From a virus (Duplodnaviria > Heunggongvirae > Uroviricota > Caudoviricetes): a stretch of 39,162 nucleotides of DNA. The notes below the pieces were generated by a model. It searched no databases. It was given only the letters and a program-made list of their open reading frames with translations, and was not told where the DNA came from. The stretch lies in the IMG/VR virus record IMGVR_UViG_2541047691_000016; one strand, 5' to 3'. Positions 214-10,414 of the stretch are shown here, one piece after another. Positions within the stretch are counted from its first letter, which is position 1, and every line of letters starts with the position of its first letter. The position numbers were made by a program, and so were the translations under genes.

Positions 214-2649
214 TTAGTGCTTCCCTTCTATTAAGTCTAACCTAGCTTTTATTCTTTCTATTTCTCTGCGCTGCCATGCTGCCTCGATATAGAATAAGAG
301 ATCAGGTCTGACCCCCCATCTAGATCCTGCTGGCGTTATTTCAACGCGCTCAATGATGTCTTCCATTACCATCACTGGATTATCATCCTCATCAACAATG
401 ATGCTCCCGTCATTATCAGTCAGCGGCATTTCCCTTTGGCCAGTAATGACGTCATCATATACTGCGGGATAATCGTCATAGCAAAGAAAGGCATAGCGGC
501 ATGTTGTGCTTTCTTCTTCCATGAGTCCGTGAGAAATAAGAACATCACGAAGTTGCTGCGCGATTACACCATGATGTATCCTCGCCCCTTCTTCCCCCTT
601 TATAGCGACAGCGTTCAGCCATTTATAAGCGATATACCTGACGTCACCCCAGGCATCCAGCAATGTTTCGTCAGGAGAGACCGGCTCTGTCTTTAATGTT
701 CCGTCACTGGTAACCACAGGATTGGAGCCAAGATAAACTATCGAGAACCTGTTTCCCGGACCACCAAGAGCATTTACATTATCAAGATAAGGTTTAACAT
801 CTCCGTTCTCAAAAAGATGTTCGAGTGCGTTATATACCGCGCGACGTGGAGTACTGCTTCTGGAACCATGCAACGTTATCATTGCACCATCTGCTGAAGA
901 CGTTGTTTCACCGCCGCTAACGATTAATCTCTGAGCGGTAACATCATCAGACGGTACTTTCTTCGCAATAATGGCGTAATTACCCTCAAGTTTGACTTCC
1001 GCGCGAACTTGTCCTGATGTACCTGCATGGACAGTCAGTGACTGGACGGCAACATCATCTGTGAAATCAACGGGTACAGGAACCGTCCTCACGCCTGACG
1101 TCGACATAAAAGTAGGAAGCGTTCTGTTAGGAGTGGCTCCGTAGACAAAATCCCTTGAAACAAATTCTTCCTGTTTAATTTTCACCCTGAAACAATACAA
1201 ATCAGCCGGGTGACCATCGTGAACATAAGGATATTTTCTGTTGTTATCCCCTATGCTCCATGGGTTTAGAAAGTCTTCCCCACCGAAAATGTAGTACAGC
1301 CAGTTGTCTTTGATACAAACTGAACCAACACCAACCGCAGAGTTAACTATTCCGCCCTGATAAATCTGATCAGTAACATTAACCCACTCTACATTATCCA
1401 GACTCCACTCATTGACGTTAACTCTGGTCATAAATGTTCTTGGATAGTTTCCTGCATAACGGTTATCAGGTTCTCCTCCTTCCCACTCACCAAATGCGCG
1501 CTCACTGCCAAAAATAATCAGCTCATCGCCAACTTTGGCAAAAGGAAGGTTTGAGTGATGAACATTATTTGGGAAGCGAAGAGAATTCCATGATGTACCT
1601 AAATCAGAGCTTCTGTGCAATGAACTACCGGGTTGAGTACTTAATGTCCCCCTGGTCGTCAGATACAGAATGCCATCATAATATTTTACACATGGCTCAG
1701 ATGCATTCGCCTCATATTCTGCAGGTATGCGTCTGCGAACAAAGCTACCAGGAGAACCGAAAGCATCAGAGAAATAGAGTATCCCAAGCTCGCGTGGACC
1801 AATATCACCATTATGGTAGCCAACAGCAAAACTGTTATCGCTAATCGTCGCAAAACTGTGAATCTCAGTAACAGGAGTGCTTCCGTCAACAAAAGAAGGA
1901 ATAGTTCCAAGACTGGTTTTTCTCCATGGTGACGAGTGAAATGATGTACCAAAACTCCAGTATCTACCCTCGTTATTCTGATCCACATCCTGGGTATTTT
2001 GCGTCGTAACTGTAAAAGTATTTTTATCAATAACAGTAGTCACCGTCATATTCCCGGTAACACCTGTAACACCAGAGTTTGAGAAGTTGACAAAATCACC
2101 AGCAAATAATCCGTGATCAGTAATGCGAATATAAGCGACTTGCTGATTTGCTGCTTTCGTTATACCACCATAAACGCGAAGGCTGCGACTCATTGGGCGA
2201 TCCCACAACTCTGCAACCTGCAGTTTATTTCCGCTCACGGTCCGCGTCTCAATTACAGCAAAAAGGCGATTTCTGACAACCCCCATACTCATGCAGTGAT
2301 AGTTAACTGTGGGATAGTTTTCATGTAAATCTGTAAGCCATTCCGGCGTTGTCCAGGTCTTCCCGTCATCTCCTGAGCGAACCCATGCAACATGGAGGTT
2401 ATTTACACCATGGCGGTCTCCAGCCATAAAAGGCGCATAGATGACATTGTCATATACAAACGTTTTATCCTGCGTCCAGGCGTTGTACCACGGTGTATCT
2501 GTAATTTTAAATAACTCTCCCTGGATAAAATCTTCAGAAACATAAAAAAGAGGCTGACCCGGTATTCTCTCAAATAAAAAACGAGCATTTTTAAATCGAC
2601 TGACATCTGGAAGAGTTGATACTTTAAAAGTAAGCCCTCGCCCATCTAT
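214..2649 (-). pseudogene. Tailspike endosialidase (endo-N-acetylneuraminidase), catalytic and C-terminal chaperone part; separated from its head-binding domain by IS2
   Basis: Translation aligns along its length with endoNF-type endosialidase (IPGQPL, DGKTWTTPEWLTDLH, PMSRSL, NFSNSGVTGV, RIHHGVIAQQLRDV motifs as recalled); the ORF-track start at 2676 is a GTG inside the IS2 terminal repeat, so the first 9 codons are IS-derived. Confidence 0.85.
2645..2649. repeat. IS2 target-site duplication copy (TCTAT)
   Basis: Identical 5-mer directly flanks both IS2 ends (2645-2649 and 3981-3985). Confidence 0.85.
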
Positions 2650-2660
2650 TGGATTTGCCC

Positions 2661-3566
2661 CTATATTTCCAGACACCTGTTATCACTTAACCCATTACTG
2701 GCTTGCTGCCGTAGATATTCCCGTGGCGAGCGATAACCCAGTGCACTATGCGGATGCCATTCGTTATAATGCTCGAACGCCTCTGCAAGGTTCTTTGCTG
2801 CCGTTAACCCGTCTGGTTTGGGCATGACACTGATGTAGTCACGCTTTATCGTTTTCACGAAGCTCTCTGCTATGCCGTTACTCTCCGGACTCCGCACCGC
2901 CGTGCTCTTCGGTTCAAGCCCCAACATCCGGGCAAACTGCCGTGTTTCATTAGCCCGGTAGCATGAACCATTATCCGTCAGCCACTCTACTGGAGACGCC
3001 GGAAGCTCGTTGCCGAAGCGGCGTTCCACCGCTCCCAGCATGACGTCCTGTACTGTTTCACTGTTGAAGCCGCCCGTAGTGACCGCCCAGTGCAGTGCCT
3101 CACGGTCACAGCAGTCCAGCGCGAACGTGACTCGCAGTTTTTCTCCGTTATCACAGCGGAACTCGAACCCGTCAGAGCACCATCGCTGATTACTTTCTTT
3201 CACAGCCACTCTGCCTGTATGTGCCCGTTTCGATGGCGGTACAGCAGGTTTTCGCTCAAGCAACAGCGCATTCTGGCGCATGATCCGGTAAACACGTTTG
3301 GCATTGATCGCAGGCATACCATCAAGTTCTGCCTGTCTGCGAAGCAGCGCCCATACCCGACGATAACCATACGTGGGCAGCTCTCCGATAACATGGTGTA
3401 TACGGAGAAGCACATCCGTATCATCAGTGTGACGACTGCGGCGGCCATCCATCCAGTCATCGGTTCGTCTGAGAATGACGTGCAACTGCGCACGCGACAC
3501 CCGGAGACAACGGCTGACTAAGCTTACTCCCCATCCCCGGGCAATAAGGGCGCGTGCGCTATCCAC
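2661..3566 (-). CDS. insD: IS2 transposase OrfB (InsD, DDE integrase domain)
   Basis: 301-aa ORF recognised as IS2 InsD; overlaps insC as expected for the -1 frameshift fusion. Confidence 0.9.
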
Positions 3567-3889
3567 TTTTTTGCCCGTCCATATTCAACGGCTTCTTTGA
3601 GGAGTTCATTTTCCATCGTTTTCTTGCCGAGCAGGCGCTGGAGTTCTTTAATCTGCTTCATGGCGGCAGCAAGTTCAGAGGCAGGAACAACCTGTTCTCC
3701 GGCGGCGACAGCAGTAAGACTTCCTTCCTGGTATTGCTTACGCCAGAGAAATAACTGGCTGGCTGCTACACCATGTTGCCGGGCAACGAGGGAGACCGTC
3801 ATCCCTGGTTCAAAGCTCTGCTGAACAATTGCGATCTTTTCCTGTGTGGTACGCCGTCTGCGTTTCTCCGGTCCTAAGACATCAATCAT
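3524..3889 (-). CDS. insC: IS2 OrfA (InsC, HTH regulator/transposase N-terminal part)
   Basis: Translation from the ATG at 3889 ([18 protein letters not shown]...) matches IS2 InsC; the ORF-track start at 3934 is an upstream extension. Confidence 0.88.
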
Positions 3890-3964
3890 CTGCTCTCCAA
3901 TGACTAGTCTAAAAACTAGTATTAAGACTATCACTTAAATAAGTGATATTGGTTGTCTGGAGAT

Positions 3965-4495
3965 TCAGGGGGCCAGTCTATCTATCTTTTCACCACCTGT
4001 TGCAACAGAAAGTAATTCTGATAGAGCTGATGTATCATCATGAACACCATCACCAATAGCCCCCCACCCTCTTACATCATAACTGTCTCTCCATCTTGCT
4101 ATCTGAAGTTTTGGGTATTTATTCGCTCCATCTGTGTCTTCTAATTGCTGCCGTAACTGATCAGGATCATACTTCAGCACATTAGGAAAATAGAACTGCT
4201 GCGCACCATACGCATCATAAACAGCCATAGAATGGCCTTGCACGGTAACGAATTTGGCAATCTGTCCGTTATATACCGGATATCCAGCAGCGTTAATGAT
4301 TATTGGTTGCGAAACAGGAACGTGAGAACCGTCTTCATTCTCCACATAGACCTGAATCTGGTTTTCTGTATTTACAGGATCAGTGTCAATTTTACCGATA
4401 TAAATTTTGCCATTGGCTACGGCTTTAAAAGAACGCGCCATAGTGAAGAGTTGCGAAGGCATCGATACGATCACATTGGCTGTAATGTCTGTCAT
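3965..4495 (-). pseudogene. Tailspike N-terminal head-binding domain (P22 gp9-like); native sequence is 4495..3986, then the frame runs into IS2 and stops at 3965
   Basis: [40 protein letters not shown]... closely resembles the P22 tailspike N-terminus; the last residues (DRLAP) are IS2-encoded. Confidence 0.88.
3981..3985. repeat. IS2 target-site duplication copy (TCTAT)
   Basis: See partner repeat at 2645-2649. Confidence 0.85.
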
Positions 4496-4553
4496 TTAAT
4501 TTGCTCCAGATACAAGGAATCGCCGAAGCATGGCTACGGTGAATTTTGGGCAT

Positions 4554-4576
4554 AAAAAAACCCAGCCGAAGCTGGG
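4554..4576 (-). terminator. Intrinsic terminator downstream of ant
   Basis: Minus strand: CCCAGC-UUCG-GCUGGG hairpin followed by a U7 run. Confidence 0.6.
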
Positions 4577-4595
4577 TCGTTGCGTTGGTTATCTA

Positions 4596-5498
4596 TCAGT
4601 AGTTATGTACTGAAGGAGGTAATTCTTTATTCTTAAGTCTCATCCATGCGGAAAGATTCGTTGGTCCGTCTGGCTCATTAATATCAACATCTCGTGTATG
4701 GTTGATTAAAACATCTCTCGCCATTCCGATAACATACGAGAATTCATGACCGTAGTCGTAGCATCTGCCGGAATAGTTCGATTGAATTTGTTTTAGCGCC
4801 TGATACAGTTCGCGGAATAATGCCTGTGAGCGGTTGGCATAATCCCATAGCCATACAAGGCTGTTTACTTCTTTTGCAGAAAGCTCGTTGGTTTTCTTCT
4901 CTTGTTTGCCGATGAACTCACCTTCAAGCACTACCCTGTGGATGTACTCTACTGCTTGTGGTATCTGAGATGCATCAAGCTCTTCAATACTTTCCACATT
5001 GAAACGCTGATGAATCATTGCATAAGCTTCTGGGTACATTAGATGCTTTTTGCTGACTAGCATATTTACAGCATCACGAAGCGGAGTCCTGTCATCAACA
5101 GATGTTTTCTTCCGTGCATTTGCTGCCTCTCCCTTTGTCCAGTAGTCATGCAGCACAGTAAAGCATTCTTCCTGGTACTGAATCAGTTTATCGCGGATGT
5201 CAGCACGAACTTTCTCAGGGTTGATGCTGAACAGCCATCCATTTAACTTCTTCAAAGGAAGGCAGAGTAGCTTACGAAGCTTACCATCAGCGGCAACCAT
5301 GTTCATATGAACACAGTTGAATTTGCTAATCTGCTTCATGAGTTTTGTTTGCTGCGTTGACCAGCTCATTCCGAGGTTTTCAACGATTGGCTTCATCGCA
5401 ACATATGCAACTCCGGCAGCCATGGCGGTGATAATTTGCTGACCGTTGAATGGCACGTAAGAGGTGTTCACTGCTTCTAAAATTGCTATACTATTCAT
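4596..5498 (-). CDS. ant: Antirepressor Ant (P22 Ant-like, 300 aa)
   Basis: [26 protein letters not shown]... from the ATG at 5498 with GGAG RBS; the ORF-track start at 5564 is an in-frame upstream extension. Confidence 0.88.
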
Positions 5499-5577
5499 GT
5501 TGGTTTTTCTCCACGGATTTACCGACAACCGAAGCCCTGACTGTTCCAGCAGTTGGGGCTTCACTGTTTTGATTTCT
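5499..5577 (+). ncRNA. Candidate sar-like antisense RNA complementary to the ant ribosome-binding region
   Basis: Extended -10 (TGcTATACT, 5484-5492) on the plus strand inside the ant 5' end; GAAGCCC/GGGCTTC hairpin (5531-5562) followed by a U-rich tract; arrangement matches P22 sar. Confidence 0.4.
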
Positions 5578-5730
5578 TTGCCGCATCAAGCATCACTTCT
5601 GAAAACGTGCGCTTGCCACTGAATACTCTTTCTCTTCTCAATTTTTCGTTCGTGCCAAATGATTCGCCATGAACAAAATTTGGTCTTAAAATGGTAATCG
5701 CAATCTCTTTGACTACTGCATCCAAGCGAA

Positions 5731-5883
5731 TCACACCGTTACCCCCTCTCTCTTCAGGCTGTCTATCAGGCGCTTGATAACCTCTGAGTTAAACGACCTG
5801 CACTCTTCCTTTGCCCTGCTACCGATAGCATCCTTTAACGACTGCGGCATCCTTACCAAAATCTTACTTATTTCTTTCTCCAT
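5731..5883 (-). CDS. arc: Arc-like ribbon-helix-helix repressor (50 aa)
   Basis: MEKEISKILVRMPQSLKDAIGSRAKEECRSFNSEVIKRLIDSLKREG resembles P22 Arc; GGAGGG RBS upstream of the ATG at 5883. Confidence 0.8.
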   Translation of the reverse strand: MEKEISKILVRMPQSLKDAIGSRAKEECRSFNSEVIKRLIDSLKREGVTV

Positions 5884-5997
5884 GTTACCCTCCACGCAAA
5901 CAACTCTTTTCGAATACAAAAGATAGCAAAGTGAGTATATCTAGTCAAAATTTTTTTGCATACACTTTGCTATCAAATTGAATACCAAAGGTGTTAT
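5884..5997. promoter_or_regulatory. Divergent Pant/Pmnt control region with candidate Arc/Mnt operators
   Basis: Lies between divergent arc and mnt; perfect 11-bp inverted repeat ATAGCAAAGTG (5923-5933) / CACTTTGCTAT (5963-5973), each embedded in AGATA...TATCT-like symmetry. Confidence 0.5.
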
Positions 5998-6246
5998 ATG
6001 GCAAAGGGTGTGTCAATTTCTCCAACTACGGTAAGAATCCCTGAATCTTTACGCGAGGCTCTTGCTGTCAGAGCATCAAAAAATGGTCGCTCTGTTAACT
6101 CCGAGATCGTCATGATTTTGCAAGCCGCGATTGATGAAGATAGGTCGCCAAAGTCAGTTGAGTCATTTGCTCAGCAAGAAGCTGATAAATTCAAAGAGGC
6201 GCTACTTGAGACGCTAAAGACCATGTATGCTAAGGATGAAAAATAA
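5998..6246 (+). CDS. mnt: Mnt-like ribbon-helix-helix repressor (82 aa)
   Basis: MAKGVSISPTTVRIPESLREALAVRASKNGRSVNSEIV... with a C-terminus like P22 Mnt; the ORF-track start at 5956 is an upstream extension. Confidence 0.75.
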   Translation: MAKGVSISPTTVRIPESLREALAVRASKNGRSVNSEIVMILQAAIDEDRSPKSVESFAQQEADKFKEALLETLKTMYAKDEK

Positions 6247-6782
6247 TGCTGCACACAATTCATTTCTTATGCCCTGTTAACACTGCCACTGTTGGGCAAC
6301 TTCAGAACCACTGTCTCACCGCATTATCTCAAGGCGCAACTGAATTAAATATCCATATATCAAGTCAGGGAGGGGAAACTGCTGCTGGCTTTACTGCGTA
6401 TAACTTTCTTAAGTCACTCCCTGTTACCGTTAGAACTCACAACATAAGCAATGTTGAATCCATAGCTAATATCGTTTTCCTGGCTGGCTCAGAACGTTTC
6501 GCAAACCCATTATCAAGATTCCTGTTACATCCTCTATTATGGTGCTTTGCCTCCCCAGCCGCCGACCATGCCAGATTGAGAGAGTACGGGAAATGCCTCG
6601 ATAACGATCTTGATCGCTTCGTTGAGACGTTCAATATCGACATCGGAACCCATATTAGGTGGGCATCCCTGATAGCAGACTCGACCATTTTGGATGCTAA
6701 CAAGGCTCTTGAGCATGGCATAATTAATTCCATAAAAACTGCAAGGCTGGCATCCAATCAGGCAAACTGGTGGGTTGTTTGA
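6246..6782 (+). CDS. Truncated ClpP-family (S14) serine peptidase-like protein, 178 aa, translationally coupled to mnt
   Basis: ISSQGGETAAGFTAYNF...SNVESIANIVFLAGSERFANPLSRFLLHP aligns with the ClpP core (INSPGG..AG..IYD..GQAASMG..LLTAGAKGKRF..NSRVMIHQP), with Ser, His and a candidate Asp in register; about 40 N-terminal ClpP residues are absent; start overlaps the mnt stop (TAATG). Confidence 0.65.
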   Translation: MLHTIHFLCPVNTATVGQLQNHCLTALSQGATELNIHISSQGGETAAGFTAYNFLKSLPVTVRTHNISNVESIANIVFLAGSERFANPLSRFLLHPLLWCFASPAADHARLREYGKCLDNDLDRFVETFNIDIGTHIRWASLIADSTILDANKALEHGIINSIKTARLASNQANWWVV

Positions 6783-6807
6783 TGGGTAAATCATGATTAC
6801 TCCTTAT

Positions 6808-6834
6808 AAAAAACCCACCTGACGGTGGGTTTAG
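6808..6834. terminator. Bidirectional intrinsic terminator between convergent genes
   Basis: AAACCCACC-TGAC-GGTGGGTTT hairpin with A/T runs on both sides; overlaps the stop codon of the 149-aa gene. Confidence 0.65.
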
Positions 6835-7280
6835 TCAAACATAGTGTTTCTAAAGTCTCTCGCATACCCTGCTAACACTCTCATTCTATTATGATTGTTA
6901 GCAGACATGTGAGCTACAGGATGAAAAAGAGCAATCAATGAATACCTGTTCTCATCAAAAAGATTTTGTGCATAAACGAGAGCGGTATTGGATGTTTTAT
7001 GCCACTGCAACTTTTGCGGTGTGCTGATATCTGTGCCATTTTTTATTGGCTCAAATTTATTTTCACCAATTGCTAAATGAAGGTGCATAAGGCCTGCATC
7101 TTCAATATCAGGAGGTCGATGATAAGAGGTGTCTCTGCCAAAATAGCTGGGCAACGTTCCCGTAGACTTGTAGATGATAAAATCATCTACAAGTGTTTGT
7201 TTTAAATCAGGAAACTCAACAAAAACCGGGGAGAAAAAATAGTCAAAACTATCCTGATTATATTCCACGGTTACTTGCAT
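6831..7280 (-). CDS. Hypothetical protein, 149 aa (distal gene of the AT-rich immI two-gene operon)
   Basis: ORF with GAGG RBS 8 nt after the upstream stop; AT-rich; no family recognised. Confidence 0.6.
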   Translation of the reverse strand: MQVTVEYNQDSFDYFFSPVFVEFPDLKQTLVDDFIIYKSTGTLPSYFGRDTSYHRPPDIEDAGLMHLHLAIGENKFEPIKNGTDISTPQKLQWHKTSNTALVYAQNLFDENRYSLIALFHPVAHMSANNHNRMRVLAGYARDFRNTMFD

Positions 7281-7288
7281 GTTTTACC

Positions 7289-7855
7289 TCAGTGGAAGTT
7301 ACCAGAGTGAAACACACGAGTCCCGTGCTCAGCAAGCGCACGCAAACCAGCCATATCTACGGAACTATCAAAAACAACCGGAACACATGAGCGTTGTTTA
7401 ATAAGACTATTCAGGTTGGTTACGGCAGATCTGGCATCAGCAACAACGATATAGATATCTCTTGCGATCTCTTTAAAATCAGCAGAAGCTTCTTTGAATA
7501 CCGATTTCATTGCCCCTTCAAGTCCTCTCAATTGATGCTCTATCAATCGAGACTTTTCTGGTTCAATGATAGACAACACATTGTCTACATTCTCATCGGT
7601 AGCGTTTGCAAGAACACGATAAGCGTATTTCAGCATTCGAGACAATTCTTTAATCGAAGACACCGCCTCATGAAGCTCATCATTAGCCCGTTCACTGCTG
7701 AATGAGGATTGATGGTAAGCGTGCTGAACGTTATCAGTAACAACCACCTCACAACTGAACGCAGAAGCTTGCTGTAATAGCAAACCTATTGCGACTCCAG
7801 CTTTGGCAGCGTTCAAGCTAAACATTTCATCAATCCCATTAGTCTCATTGCTCAT
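7289..7855 (-). CDS. Hypothetical protein, 188 aa (proximal gene of the immI two-gene operon)
   Basis: ATG at 7855 preceded by AAGGAGG with a 5-nt spacer; the ORF-track start at 7885 is an extension; no family recognised. Confidence 0.6.
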   Translation of the reverse strand: MSNETNGIDEMFSLNAAKAGVAIGLLLQQASAFSCEVVVTDNVQHAYHQSSFSSERANDELHEAVSSIKELSRMLKYAYRVLANATDENVDNVLSIIEPEKSRLIEHQLRGLEGAMKSVFKEASADFKEIARDIYIVVADARSAVTNLNSLIKQRSCVPVVFDSSVDMAGLRALAEHGTRVFHSGNFH

Positions 7856-8030
7856 ACAAACCTCCTTCTTATCGGAGATTATCAATAGCTATGCATCCAT
7901 TGAATACACGCTATGCGCAATAAGTTTACGTCACGTGATATCATTATGCAACCACCGTTCTATCACCGACTAACTTTACTCCCACTCCTATACATCATCT
8001 GGTATCCTGCGCAAAACTAAGGAGGTTGGT

Positions 8031-8381
8031 GTGAATGCTCAGTCTGTCATCATGGTTTTCCTTGGGCTGATTGTCGCAAAACTATATCCAGACTGGTGGA
8101 AAGGGGCATTAGCTACTGTCGCCATCTATTTGCTTTTATCCATCGTTAAGCGATCACTCGCTGAGACCGTAAATCAAGCAAAACGTTTCTCATTTAAGAG
8201 TTTAATAAACTATGTTACTGGGCTTATTTTTTGCCTTTCAATTCTGATCGCTTCGGCTTTTTTGCCCGTATCAATAGCTAATTTTTTTGGCGCACCATAT
8301 GAGGTAGGTTATCTATTCTCTGTTTCCTGTCTTGCCATTGCTCTTCTTTACCTGTGGACGAGATCAAAGAATAAAAATTAG
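8031..8381 (+). CDS. Small multi-pass membrane protein (116 aa), divergent from the two-gene operon; positional analogue of P22 sieA
   Basis: GTG start with TAAGGAGG RBS (8018-8025); three to four hydrophobic segments; no sequence-level identification. Confidence 0.55.
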   Translation: MNAQSVIMVFLGLIVAKLYPDWWKGALATVAIYLLLSIVKRSLAETVNQAKRFSFKSLINYVTGLIFCLSILIASAFLPVSIANFFGAPYEVGYLFSVSCLAIALLYLWTRSKNKN

Positions 8382-8398: not shown

Positions 8399-10414
8399 TT
8401 ATTGAGCTTCTTTTTGTGATGCCTGTGCGACTCTGGTGAGCGATTGTGTGACCGTACTGATCGCTCTGTCATATGCTGTGCTACCTTTTGGCGTATTTGC
8501 CAGACGTAACAAGGCATTTCGTATAACAGGGCTTTCGTATGCCTTCGCAGCTCCTCCTACGACACCAGCAGCAGGAACAACAAACGCAGCCGTTTTTAGC
8601 ATCCCCGCTAATACTGCTGCGTTTATGATGCCACCACCAACTAACAATCCATAAAGCTGCTGACCATTTAAGTTTTGAACGTTCGCTTTTGCCGCGTGTC
8701 TTGTATCGTTGAGGTATTTAATAACGCCGTCCAGTTCCTTTCCATGTACGCCTTTAAAGAAAGTTGCTGATTGCTTCCTGTTCCGGTGTAACGCATTAAT
8801 AAACTTTTCAACACTAATATTTCCAGACGGATCAGTCGCCTTATCTACAGCATTCTGAACTATGGCTGCTCGTGCGTTTTGCCTACCATTGTCATCCAGA
8901 AGCCTGTAAAGCTGAGAACGTTCTGATGGGTTTTGGCTAAAAACGAGTTTTGTTACATCCTCAGGTGTAGCCTTGCCGCTGGCTATTGCCTTTTGAACGC
9001 GCGTTCTTCCCATCATGTCATTGAATCTAGCCCATGAGCGATCAACCCTAGACATATTGGCAGCTTCTTCTGAGCCTAGTTTTTGGGATACTGCTTTTTT
9101 CATATCCGCTGTATATGCCTTGTAGACAATATCGCTGGCTTTCTGGAGCGTGTCTTTATCAACAGTCTCGTTTGAATTCATGAACCGCTTTCGAAGGTCA
9201 GTTCTGTTTTCTCTCGCCAGACGCAGGTCATTGGGTCCGCTGGTGATATCGTCTTTAAATTGCTGCAAGACTTTTACCGCGGCTCTATCCTGAGATTTGC
9301 CCGGGCGGCTTAACACGGCAATCTGATTGTCGATAGCTTTTACCGTGTTTGAGAGATCGACAGGGGTATCCCCCATAGCGTCAATTATGCGGTTATATCG
9401 CTTTCCTGCTGCCTCAATGAATTTTTGTTGCCCTTTAGTCGCAGATTCATAAAGCTGTTTATCAGAAATGCCACCCAGACCATCGCTAAATGTTCTGACT
9501 AAATTTTCTCGTGCTTGTTGTTGATTCAGCCGATTCTTACCGGTTCCAAAAAAAGGAACTCTTTCGCCTAATGTCTGAGCCTGACTCTGCATAAAGGTTT
9601 TATCTTTCAGCGTGTCACTGGTCATTAACGGCAGGTTTCTTTCCGACGCAAAATCGACAGCAGCCTTTGCTTCCGGTGACATCTCACCGCGAACAGCCCT
9701 GGAAACCGCACTAACTGTATTTTCCAGCCCCTTGCCAACACCACCAATGCCAGCAGAAATTACCGTTTGTGCAGGATCAATATCTTCTCCGCCAGCAAGG
9801 CTGGTGCCACCCTGTAGTGCTAAATCTGTAGCAGCTGATTTCCCTATGGCACCAAGCACCGTTCCAGCCCTGCCCGCTGGTGTGAACGCTAACGCATTAG
9901 CAAGAAACGAAGTCAGGTCTTGCGGTGATAAACCTGGCTTGTTCAGGGCATAATCACCGGATGGCAGGGAAACGATAGTGTTACCCTTCTCATCCTGCCT
10001 TAATTTCGCCCCCATACTCTGAAGAATCTTTTCCTGAGACGCGTCGGAGCCGAAAAGTTGAGACCATCCAGCCTTCAGGGCATCCATGCTTAGTGAGTTC
10101 AACTCAGGGGCAGCCCCAACATTTTGCAGTCTCTCCATTTCTGGTGTCATTCGGCTTTCACCGGTAACGGCATCGCGCATTGCAGCACCTAAAACAGCCC
10201 CTTGCTCAGCAGAGCGATCTAGTCCTTCCTTCTGCTGAGTGGCAAGCTGTGCATATCCTGATGCAAGTGAGTTGTCTGCTGGCGATTGCTGAACACCTTG
10301 TTGTGTTGGCGCTGACTGACCAGCAAAATACTCATCAATGGCGGACCCAATATCTTCCGTGCTCGTACCATCAGGAAAGGTAAATGTCTTACCATTTGCA
10401 GTTACTTTCATCAT
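8399..10414 (-). CDS. Ejection (DNA transfer) protein, P22 gp16-like
   Basis: 671-aa ORF last in the gp7-gp20-gp16 order after the tail needle; Gly/Ala-rich, typical of E-proteins. Confidence 0.8.

Follow-up and report, generated by a model that had tools for sequence, protein, structure and literature searches.

The window, by which we mean the whole 39,162-nucleotide stretch of DNA analysed here, is a P22-like (Lederbergvirus-type) prophage. The region containing mnt and the gene for a 178-residue Clp protein is 100% identical to prophage DNA of E. coli ATCC 11775, APEC O1 and other E. coli strains, most of them extraintestinal. The minus strand carries ant (4596–5498), a 57-residue open reading frame (5561–5734) and arc (5731–5883). 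The antirepressor gene ant, whose RefSeq product is a 300-residue Ant, is identified by Pfam P22_AR_N (5e-45), Pfam P22_AR_C (5.9e-29) and phrog_245 (anti-repressor Ant), while arc, for which the RefSeq coordinates were carried over from APEC O1, encodes a 50-residue Arc repressor (Pfam Arc, 9.6e-12). A divergent promoter/operator region at 5920–5997, the equivalent of P22 Pant/Pmnt, separates arc, which runs leftward, from the mnt-like repressor gene, which runs rightward (5998–6246, plus strand). The 82-residue mnt product consists of a ribbon-helix-helix (RHH) N-terminal half and a helical C-terminal half, and matches Pfam Arc (9.5e-11) and FitA-like RHH proteins; RefSeq names it 'Arc family DNA-binding protein', and its Pectobacterium and Providencia orthologues match PF11423 Repressor_Mnt. 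The initial annotation, made from the sequence alone, had called this gene mnt, and the profile match and the divergent arrangement with arc-ant bear out that call. With an RHH-type Mnt divergent from arc-ant and with P22_AR_N and P22_AR_C domains on Ant, the neighbourhood is that of a P22-type immI module.

Directly behind mnt lies clp (6246–6782, plus strand; WP_000903306.1), which encodes a gate-less ClpP-fold serine peptidase subunit of 178 residues (Pfam CLP_protease). It is followed by a bidirectional terminator hairpin (6811–6832, both strands) shared with a convergent yafO-like operon, by a YafO-family toxin gene (6831–7280, minus strand), by a 198-residue gene of unknown function (7289–7885, minus strand), by a small membrane-protein open reading frame (8031–8381, plus strand) and by a gp16-like ejection protein gene (8399–10414, minus strand). 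The variable interval from mnt to the ejection-protein genes is a classic cargo position, and clp sits there. The immI region of P22 has the same divergent mnt/arc-ant layout, but differs from the window in that here a cargo gene overlaps the mnt stop codon; to our knowledge, P22 itself has no clp gene and nothing fused to the end of mnt. Within the immI module, clp is an optional extra and not a core part.

The mnt-clp junction (6232–6248, plus strand), as read from the sequence, combines an AAGGA Shine-Dalgarno sequence inside mnt with a TAATG stop/start overlap. Specifically, the final A of the mnt TAA (6244–6246) is the first A of the clp ATG (6246–6248), as had been noted initially, and the AAGGA is located 9 nt 5′ of this ATG. 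The Pectobacterium copy has an identical TAATG junction, and in the Providencia copy the overlap is replaced by a 29-nt spacer bearing its own AAGGA. A σ70-like site (TTGACT-17-TATCTT) is present at 5948–5920 on the minus strand, and a simple scan upstream of mnt did not find a consensus Pmnt promoter. Lysogens of P22 transcribe mnt, and Mnt holds Pant off, so that the antirepressor stays silent. The hairpin downstream of clp (AAACCCACC-TGAC-GGTGGGTTT) was missed by the terminator scan and recovered by RNA folding of both strands, which gives a 9-bp stem with z-scores of -2.95 and -3.25. Because a long T-run is present on the minus strand only, with just TTT on the plus strand, the hairpin mainly terminates the convergent yafO-like operon and stops mnt-clp less strongly.

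The Clp protein matches Pfam CLP_protease (PF00574) over residues 24–165 with a score of 44.4 bits against a cutoff of 20.2, placing it in the ClpP superfamily (MEROPS S14 fold), in agreement with the family first proposed for it. It fails the equivalog cutoffs of canonical ClpP (TIGR00493, 19.2 versus 308.6; PRK00277, 31.3 versus 249) and those of the head maturation models (NF045542, 49.3 versus 120; NF045540, 49.4 versus 475), and it passes no curated NCBIfam cutoff. The best match in PHROGs, a collection with no curated cutoff, is phrog_94, head maturation protease (7e-21). As regards descent from phage prohead proteases, the similarity of the protein to these enzymes and its similarity to cellular ClpP are equally remote. 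Among solved structures, the best match by a wide margin is 9uxt_A, a 183-residue 'Clp protease' (phmmer, residues 3–175, E 1.6e-35), and canonical ClpP structures reach only about 1e-7. The AlphaFold2 model of the Clp protein, computed with an alignment of 25 relatives, has a pLDDT of 90.8, and Foldseek likewise ranks 9uxt_A first (TM 0.91, rmsd 2.0 Å), with E. coli ClpP (EcClpP) and other structures at TM 0.7–0.8.

Residue 1 of the Clp protein aligns with residue ~24 of mature EcClpP. The chain is thus short of about 23–26 residues of the mature enzyme, or about 37–40 of the 207-residue precursor, so that the initial estimate of roughly 40 absent residues holds when counted on the precursor. 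All relatives share the start M-x-H-T-V-H-F, indicating that the N-terminus is natively short; the family has a median of 8 residues ahead of strand 1, compared with 26 in EcClpP. At the other end, an N-W-W-V tail is conserved in the enteric branch. The Clp protein is a short, gate-less ClpP paralogue of the family of PpClpP1, the Pseudomonas plecoglossicida protein in 9UXT (Chen et al., PLoS Pathog 2026, PMC12900304).

To describe the active site across the family, we drew 137 representatives from the 287 clusters, mostly of 180–200 residues, that a profile search of 1.84 billion cluster representatives returned at E ≤ 1e-30. In the alignment, Ser72, the serine of the 'SNVESIAN' motif, corresponds to EcClpP Ser97, His95 corresponds to EcClpP His122, and the GG oxyanion loop (G42-G43) is aligned with EcClpP Gly67/68. 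Ser72, His95 and both glycines are invariant in the 25 close relatives; among the 137 representatives, Ser72, His95 and Gly43 are likewise invariant and Gly42 is kept in 135. The initial annotation had placed the Ser, the His and a plausible Asp in register, which is correct for the serine and the histidine but not for the aspartate, as the position of the canonical triad Asp171 is occupied by Ser146. In the family at large, this column holds Gly (58 of 137), Ala (29), Arg (9), Pro (7), Ser (6) and others; Asp is outside the eight commonest residues, and at most a few of the 137 sequences can therefore have it. The neighbouring Asp145, probably the residue that the initial annotation had in view, is shared with the Pectobacterium copy only. 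Judged from these alignments, the family is a Ser-His variant of ClpP, in agreement with the mutagenesis of PpClpP1. An acidic residue on the handle helix, Asp121, is present in 104 of the 137 sequences, and the PpClpP1 residue at this position lines the bortezomib pocket (PMC12900304); that Asp121 might act as an alternative acidic partner is speculation.

The surface that docks unfoldases is altered as well. Specifically, the EcClpP residues Y60, Y62, F82 and I90 of the pocket for the IGF loops of ClpX and ClpA correspond to N35, H37, S57 and H65 in the Clp protein, so that polar residues replace the hydrophobic pocket, and the N-terminal axial loops are absent. With a polar pocket and a chain that starts at strand 1, direct docking of an unfoldase is unlikely, as was found for PpClpP1.

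PpClpP1 is the shortest ClpP characterised, and it has neither the N-terminal helix nor the axial loop (PMC12900304). It forms a homotetradecamer with an axial pore of 42.7 Å and has a Ser73-His96-Pro151 active site that depends on Ser and His and tolerates the loss of Pro (PMC12900304). On its own, PpClpP1 has a peptidase activity about 13-fold below that of the canonical paralogue, degrades neither FITC-casein nor GFP-ssrA, does not bind ClpX, and neither responds to nor is stabilised by ADEP (PMC12900304). With canonical ClpP2, it forms a stable heterotetradecamer that binds ClpX and is somewhat more active than ClpP2 by itself, with higher peptidase activity and 'slightly higher' ClpX-dependent degradation; deletion of its gene impairs growth and motility (PMC12900304). 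The phage Clp protein resembles PpClpP1 over its full length (38–40% identity; 178 versus 183 residues), lacks the same axial loops and helix, has the same Ser and His together with a non-acidic third position, and, like PpClpP1, coexists with a canonical ClpP in its cell. The two differ in the third position, which is Ser146 in the phage protein and Pro in PpClpP1, and in location, as PpClpP1 is encoded among ordinary chromosomal genes and the window copy in a prophage. The initial annotation had described clp as encoding a standalone protease. This description is doubtful, as PpClpP1, the sole characterised relative, is weak by itself and acts together with the housekeeping ClpP in a mixed tetradecamer.

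Two further groups of ClpP-fold proteins invite comparison. P. aeruginosa ClpP2, Listeria ClpP1 and M. tuberculosis ClpP1P2 provide second isoforms that act only in mixed tetradecamers, and the phage protein may share their logic, by analogy, of a divergent ring that is weak or inactive alone and is stacked on an unfoldase-docking ring. Listeria ClpP1, which has Asn in place of Asp, is likewise without the catalytic Asp, and second-isoform structures (4ryf) are among the next-best fold matches of the phage protein. Unlike the latter, however, the second isoforms are encoded on the chromosome and have lost little of the N-terminal region, and their similarity to it is at the superfamily level only (E about 1e-5 to 1e-7). 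The S14 prohead proteases (such as those of phi3396 and the protease-scaffold fusions of Stx phages) are phage ClpP folds that are similarly devoid of the ATPase-docking N-terminus. They are 22–32% identical to the phage Clp protein, which, in contrast to them, is neither fused nor adjacent to scaffold or capsid genes and is encoded outside the head cluster.

E. coli, Pectobacterium and Providencia all have P22-like prophages with the mnt-clp pair. The E. coli prophages that carry it have several different tailspikes and downstream cargo genes; in Pectobacterium parmentieri the TAATG junction is kept even though the DNA-binding half of Mnt is quite different; and the mnt-linked Providencia copy is 65% identical. 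Furthermore, in lambdoid PhiR12 phages the entire ant-arc-mnt-clp block is found between tail genes L and K. A nucleotide query comprising mnt-clp (5998–6830) matches 172 of 5426 complete E. coli genomes (about 3%), always on the chromosome, and the matching genomes include the type strain and APEC O1; a few of these 172 matches cover mnt alone or the terminator alone. The E. coli match often starts inside mnt, at query position 168 or 209, so that clp and the conserved 3′ half of mnt are inherited together, and the half that recognises the operator is swapped. The mnt allele of the window also occurs in E. coli without clp.

Stand-alone relatives (52–75% identity) occupy other prophage sites, where inspection of flanks of about 4–5 kb revealed no mnt, arc or ant. 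They lie at the junction of the lysis cassette and terminase (Leclercia, Klebsiella, E. coli, Serratia, Citrobacter and the metagenome/SRA cluster P0042), just downstream of N (Proteus), between tail-fibre and lysis genes (Chromobacterium) or within a Mu-like tail cluster (Pantoea), and they are always antisense to the flanking phage genes. A promoter scan upstream of three stand-alone copies gave no convincing σ70 site, and an alignment of seven upstream regions had only a Shine-Dalgarno-like GGAG and the ATG in common, with no conserved upstream element; given that no promoter or upstream element is recognisable, expression of the stand-alone copies in the lysogen is suggested by their orientation only. 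In the enteric and Chromobacterium branch, all 13 arrangements examined are prophages, with many different insertion sites. The Massilia and Pseudomonas branches, which are more distant, have ordinary chromosomal neighbours (HIUase, aldehyde dehydrogenase, OprD). Upstream of the chromosomal homologues, an RHH gene was found in none of 80 genomes; as the upstream-ORF script produced spurious long open reading frames in the high-GC Massilia and Pseudomonas DNA, we trusted only the recurrent HIUase and DUF4153 neighbours. A type II toxin-antitoxin pair was considered and rejected, as clp is often solitary and the RHH gene is the immI repressor, which also occurs without clp.

Neighbour-joining places the stand-alone copies of Leclercia and Serratia within the mnt-linked clade, indicating that the context has switched. 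Linkage to mnt is not a defining feature of the clp family. The clp gene shows the behaviour of mobile prophage cargo, with a product that is independent of immI, and the idea that its link to a repressor is a clue to its function is not supported, given the stand-alone relatives, the shared clade and the occurrence of the same mnt allele without clp.

The clp gene is maintained as a coding sequence. Compared with the Pectobacterium copy, to which it is 80% identical in amino acids, the window copy has a dN/dS of 0.077, which points to strong purifying selection; for more distant pairs, dS is saturated and dN is 0.2–0.45. The exact protein, WP_000903306.1, is listed in 7904 assembly-index blocks, and other prophage hosts of clp include Klebsiella, Proteus, Serratia and Pectobacterium, among more.

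The explanation that we favour, at about even odds (a probability of roughly 0.5), is that clp is a lysogen-expressed cargo gene, or 'moron', that uses the mnt transcript and whose product, by analogy with PpClpP1, would remodel host Clp proteolysis through the host ClpP. On the simplest reading of the junction, clp attached itself to mnt and thereby gained constitutive expression in the lysogen. In P22-like phages, it would be the distal cistron of the mnt transcript, and the TAATG overlap and the Shine-Dalgarno sequence ahead of it would couple its translation to that of mnt. The product would form heptameric rings which, alone, would have weak peptidase activity and a wide-open pore and would recruit no unfoldase. 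A phage ring could stack on a ring of the host housekeeping ClpP to give a mixed tetradecamer, the host face of which would still be served by ClpX or ClpA, and the activity or specificity of host Clp proteolysis would be altered as a result, with a benefit that may lie in host fitness, lysogen stability or phage exclusion. Because identity to PpClpP1 is only about 38–40%, the oligomeric state and the pairing with E. coli ClpP are extrapolations. More tentatively, and in our estimate with less chance of being right than wrong, the captured host ClpP would become a hybrid protease that reprograms AAA+ proteolysis of the lysogen, with lysogenic conversion or phage exclusion as the outcome; such a viral route would extend over many Enterobacterales prophages and be common in ExPEC/APEC K1 lineages.

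Several observations run against parts of this scheme. With respect to a hybrid protease, the reported gain in ClpXP activity with the mixed particle is small, and the Pseudomonas and Massilia branches are chromosomal, so that their biology may not transfer. With respect to coupled expression, a consensus Pmnt was not detected and the overlap is not conserved in Providencia.

We weighed four other explanations, which in order of plausibility are an autonomous exclusion or defence peptidase, a poison subunit, a dedicated immI protease and a prohead-protease relic. An autonomous open-pore peptidase would act as a superinfection-exclusion, abortive-infection or defence effector with neither host ClpP nor an ATPase, the gate-less homo-oligomer itself degrading unfolded or incoming phage proteins or peptides. 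Its catalytic Ser-His pair is invariant, the pore of its homologue is wide open at 42.7 Å, and prophage-borne clp always sits in cargo hot spots where defence and exclusion genes gather; in the window, a YafO-family toxin gene adjoins it, and the interval between gene 16 and mnt is the position of P22 sieA. We nevertheless consider this explanation unlikely: PpClpP1 alone is inactive on FITC-casein and GFP-ssrA and about 13-fold less active as a peptidase, the chromosomal Massilia and Pseudomonas copies resemble housekeeping paralogues, no PADLOC-DB 2.0 family matches the 178-residue protein at E ≤ 0.1, and a PADLOC scan of clp and its neighbours yielded no defence model. Co-assembly with host ClpP could instead lower ClpXP and ClpAP capacity, as a particle with one face devoid of unfoldase docking and an open pore that might uncouple degradation would stabilise particular phage or host proteins. 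The loss of the axial loops and of the hydrophobic IGF pocket is consistent with such a poison or decoy, as is the stable pairing of PpClpP1, which binds no ClpX, with canonical ClpP, which implies that the particle can be capped from one side only. However, the mixed PpClpP1-ClpP2 particle was measured to be higher, not lower, in both peptidase and ClpX-dependent activity, and loss of PpClpP1 impaired growth and motility, which makes a poisoning role improbable.

The two remaining explanations are poorly supported by the context data. A protease dedicated to immI, as the initial annotation had proposed, would adjust the antirepressor switch by processing or degrading Mnt, Arc or Ant. Such a role would account for the overlap of clp with mnt in E. 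coli and Pectobacterium, for their adjacency in Providencia and for the transfer of ant-arc-mnt-clp as one block into the lambdoid PhiR12 phages. Most of the surveyed relatives, however, have no mnt, arc or ant within about 4–5 kb, and stand-alone and mnt-linked copies are intermixed in the tree. P22 itself is not known to carry clp, the same allele of mnt is found in E. coli without clp, and the breakpoints in mnt at query positions 168 and 209 fit cargo inherited with the conserved 3′ end of mnt; it is therefore very unlikely that the protein is dedicated to acting on Mnt, Arc or Ant. That clp is a relic or a mis-annotated form of a ClpP-type prohead (head maturation) protease is suggested by its best PHROG match, by the weak NCBIfam head maturation matches and by the label 'head maturation protease' in GenBank MN340231 (phage phiv205-1). 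This reading is effectively refuted. The NCBIfam score is 49.3 against a cutoff of 120, genuine prohead proteases are just 22–32% identical, and the late genes on either side of the stand-alone copies run in the opposite direction. Heads of the P22 type are made without a protease, and the Citrobacter prophage that carries clp already encodes its own HK97-type S78 prohead protease. Purifying selection and the existence of chromosomal homologues likewise oppose a relic. The initial annotation had also set clp apart from prohead proteases on the grounds that it lies in the immunity region and not in the morphogenetic cluster, and its place in immI directly behind mnt sustains that judgement.

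Both database labels for the protein, 'head maturation protease' in GenBank and 'ATP-dependent Clp protease proteolytic subunit' in RefSeq, are misleading. The protein family itself is already known, as the structure and biochemistry of PpClpP1 were published in 2026. That paper never mentions prophage (PMC12900304), and a full-text literature search for phage or prophage ClpP cargo genes found only that paper. Two things seem to lack a description so far, the large branch of the family carried by prophages and the repeated joining of clp to the end of mnt; this large mobile branch of the published 'ClpP1' family went unremarked by those who described the family. If the phage subunit pairs with host ClpP, prophages would alter a central regulated protease of the cell; RpoS, SOS proteins, antitoxins and phage replication proteins are among the substrates of ClpXP and ClpAP. 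This would be a concrete example, and not a new principle, of how a phage may rewire the Clp protease of its host. With a solved structure for the family and with bortezomib as a known inhibitor of PpClpP1 (PMC12900304), the hypothesis is directly testable.

The enteric prophage branch of the ClpP-like proteins shares a conserved hydrophobic C-terminal tail, N-W-W-V(-x-C), in alignments A1 and A3. In the 178-aa protein encoded by clp (6246–6782, plus strand), the tail comprises residues 174–178 (window positions 6765–6779) and forms a short strand in the predicted model. Canonical ClpP lacks this tail, and that of PpClpP1, the short ClpP of Pseudomonas plecoglossicida (PDB 9UXT), differs from it; one possibility is that the tail occupies the protein's own docking pocket. 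At the other end of the protein, the homologue in the Klebsiella prophages (L089–L092, gene at 5001–5717) is called as 238 aa, from a start 56 codons upstream of the family start M-I-H-T-V-H-F, indicating that the annotated start is probably over-extended.

Comparison with E. coli genomes, L084 and Escherichia phage PhiR12_1 (L002, PV340549) reveals that mnt (5998–6246, plus strand), the gene directly upstream of clp, is a mosaic. Specifically, the half encoding the N-terminal DNA-binding segment is swapped between prophages, with breakpoints near window positions 6165 and 6206, while the C-terminal half of the product ('...FKEALLETLKTMY.KD.K') changes little, even when E. coli is compared with Pectobacterium. 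PhiR12_1, a lambdoid siphovirus, carries a complete ant-arc-mnt-clp block of the immI type (2606–4618) in the midst of its lambda-like tail genes, flanked by the tail assembly genes K and L. The annotation labels all four genes of this block hypothetical, or antirepressor in the note field only.

In the window, a 57-aa ORF (5561–5734, minus strand; RefSeq WP_000620145.1, hypothetical protein) sits between arc and ant and overlaps the arc stop; P22 is not known to encode a protein here. On the other side of clp, a YafO-family toxin gene is preceded, in place of a YafN-like antitoxin gene, by a 188/198-aa gene (phrog_8416, function unassigned; the pair spans 6831–7885, minus strand). The toxin gene product matches Pfam YafO_toxin at 3.4e-22, yet falls under the NCBIfam equivalog cutoff. 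Many E. coli copies of this prophage region have the pair, whereas others lack it; it is convergent with clp, and the two share a terminator. Further downstream, an ORF encoding a 116-aa predicted membrane protein (8031–8381, plus strand), for which a search for a family match found none, fills the space that separates the cargo genes from the gp16-like gene. Because P22 has sieA in the equivalent interval, this ORF is a candidate exclusion gene.

Outside phages, dozens of Massilia species carry a short ClpP paralogue (L009–L063, Massilia and Telluria genomes), usually adjoining a 5-hydroxyisourate hydrolase gene or a gene for a large DUF4153 membrane protein. With so many species carrying it and such recurrent neighbours, the paralogue seems to be a stably maintained gene of the Massilia chromosome.
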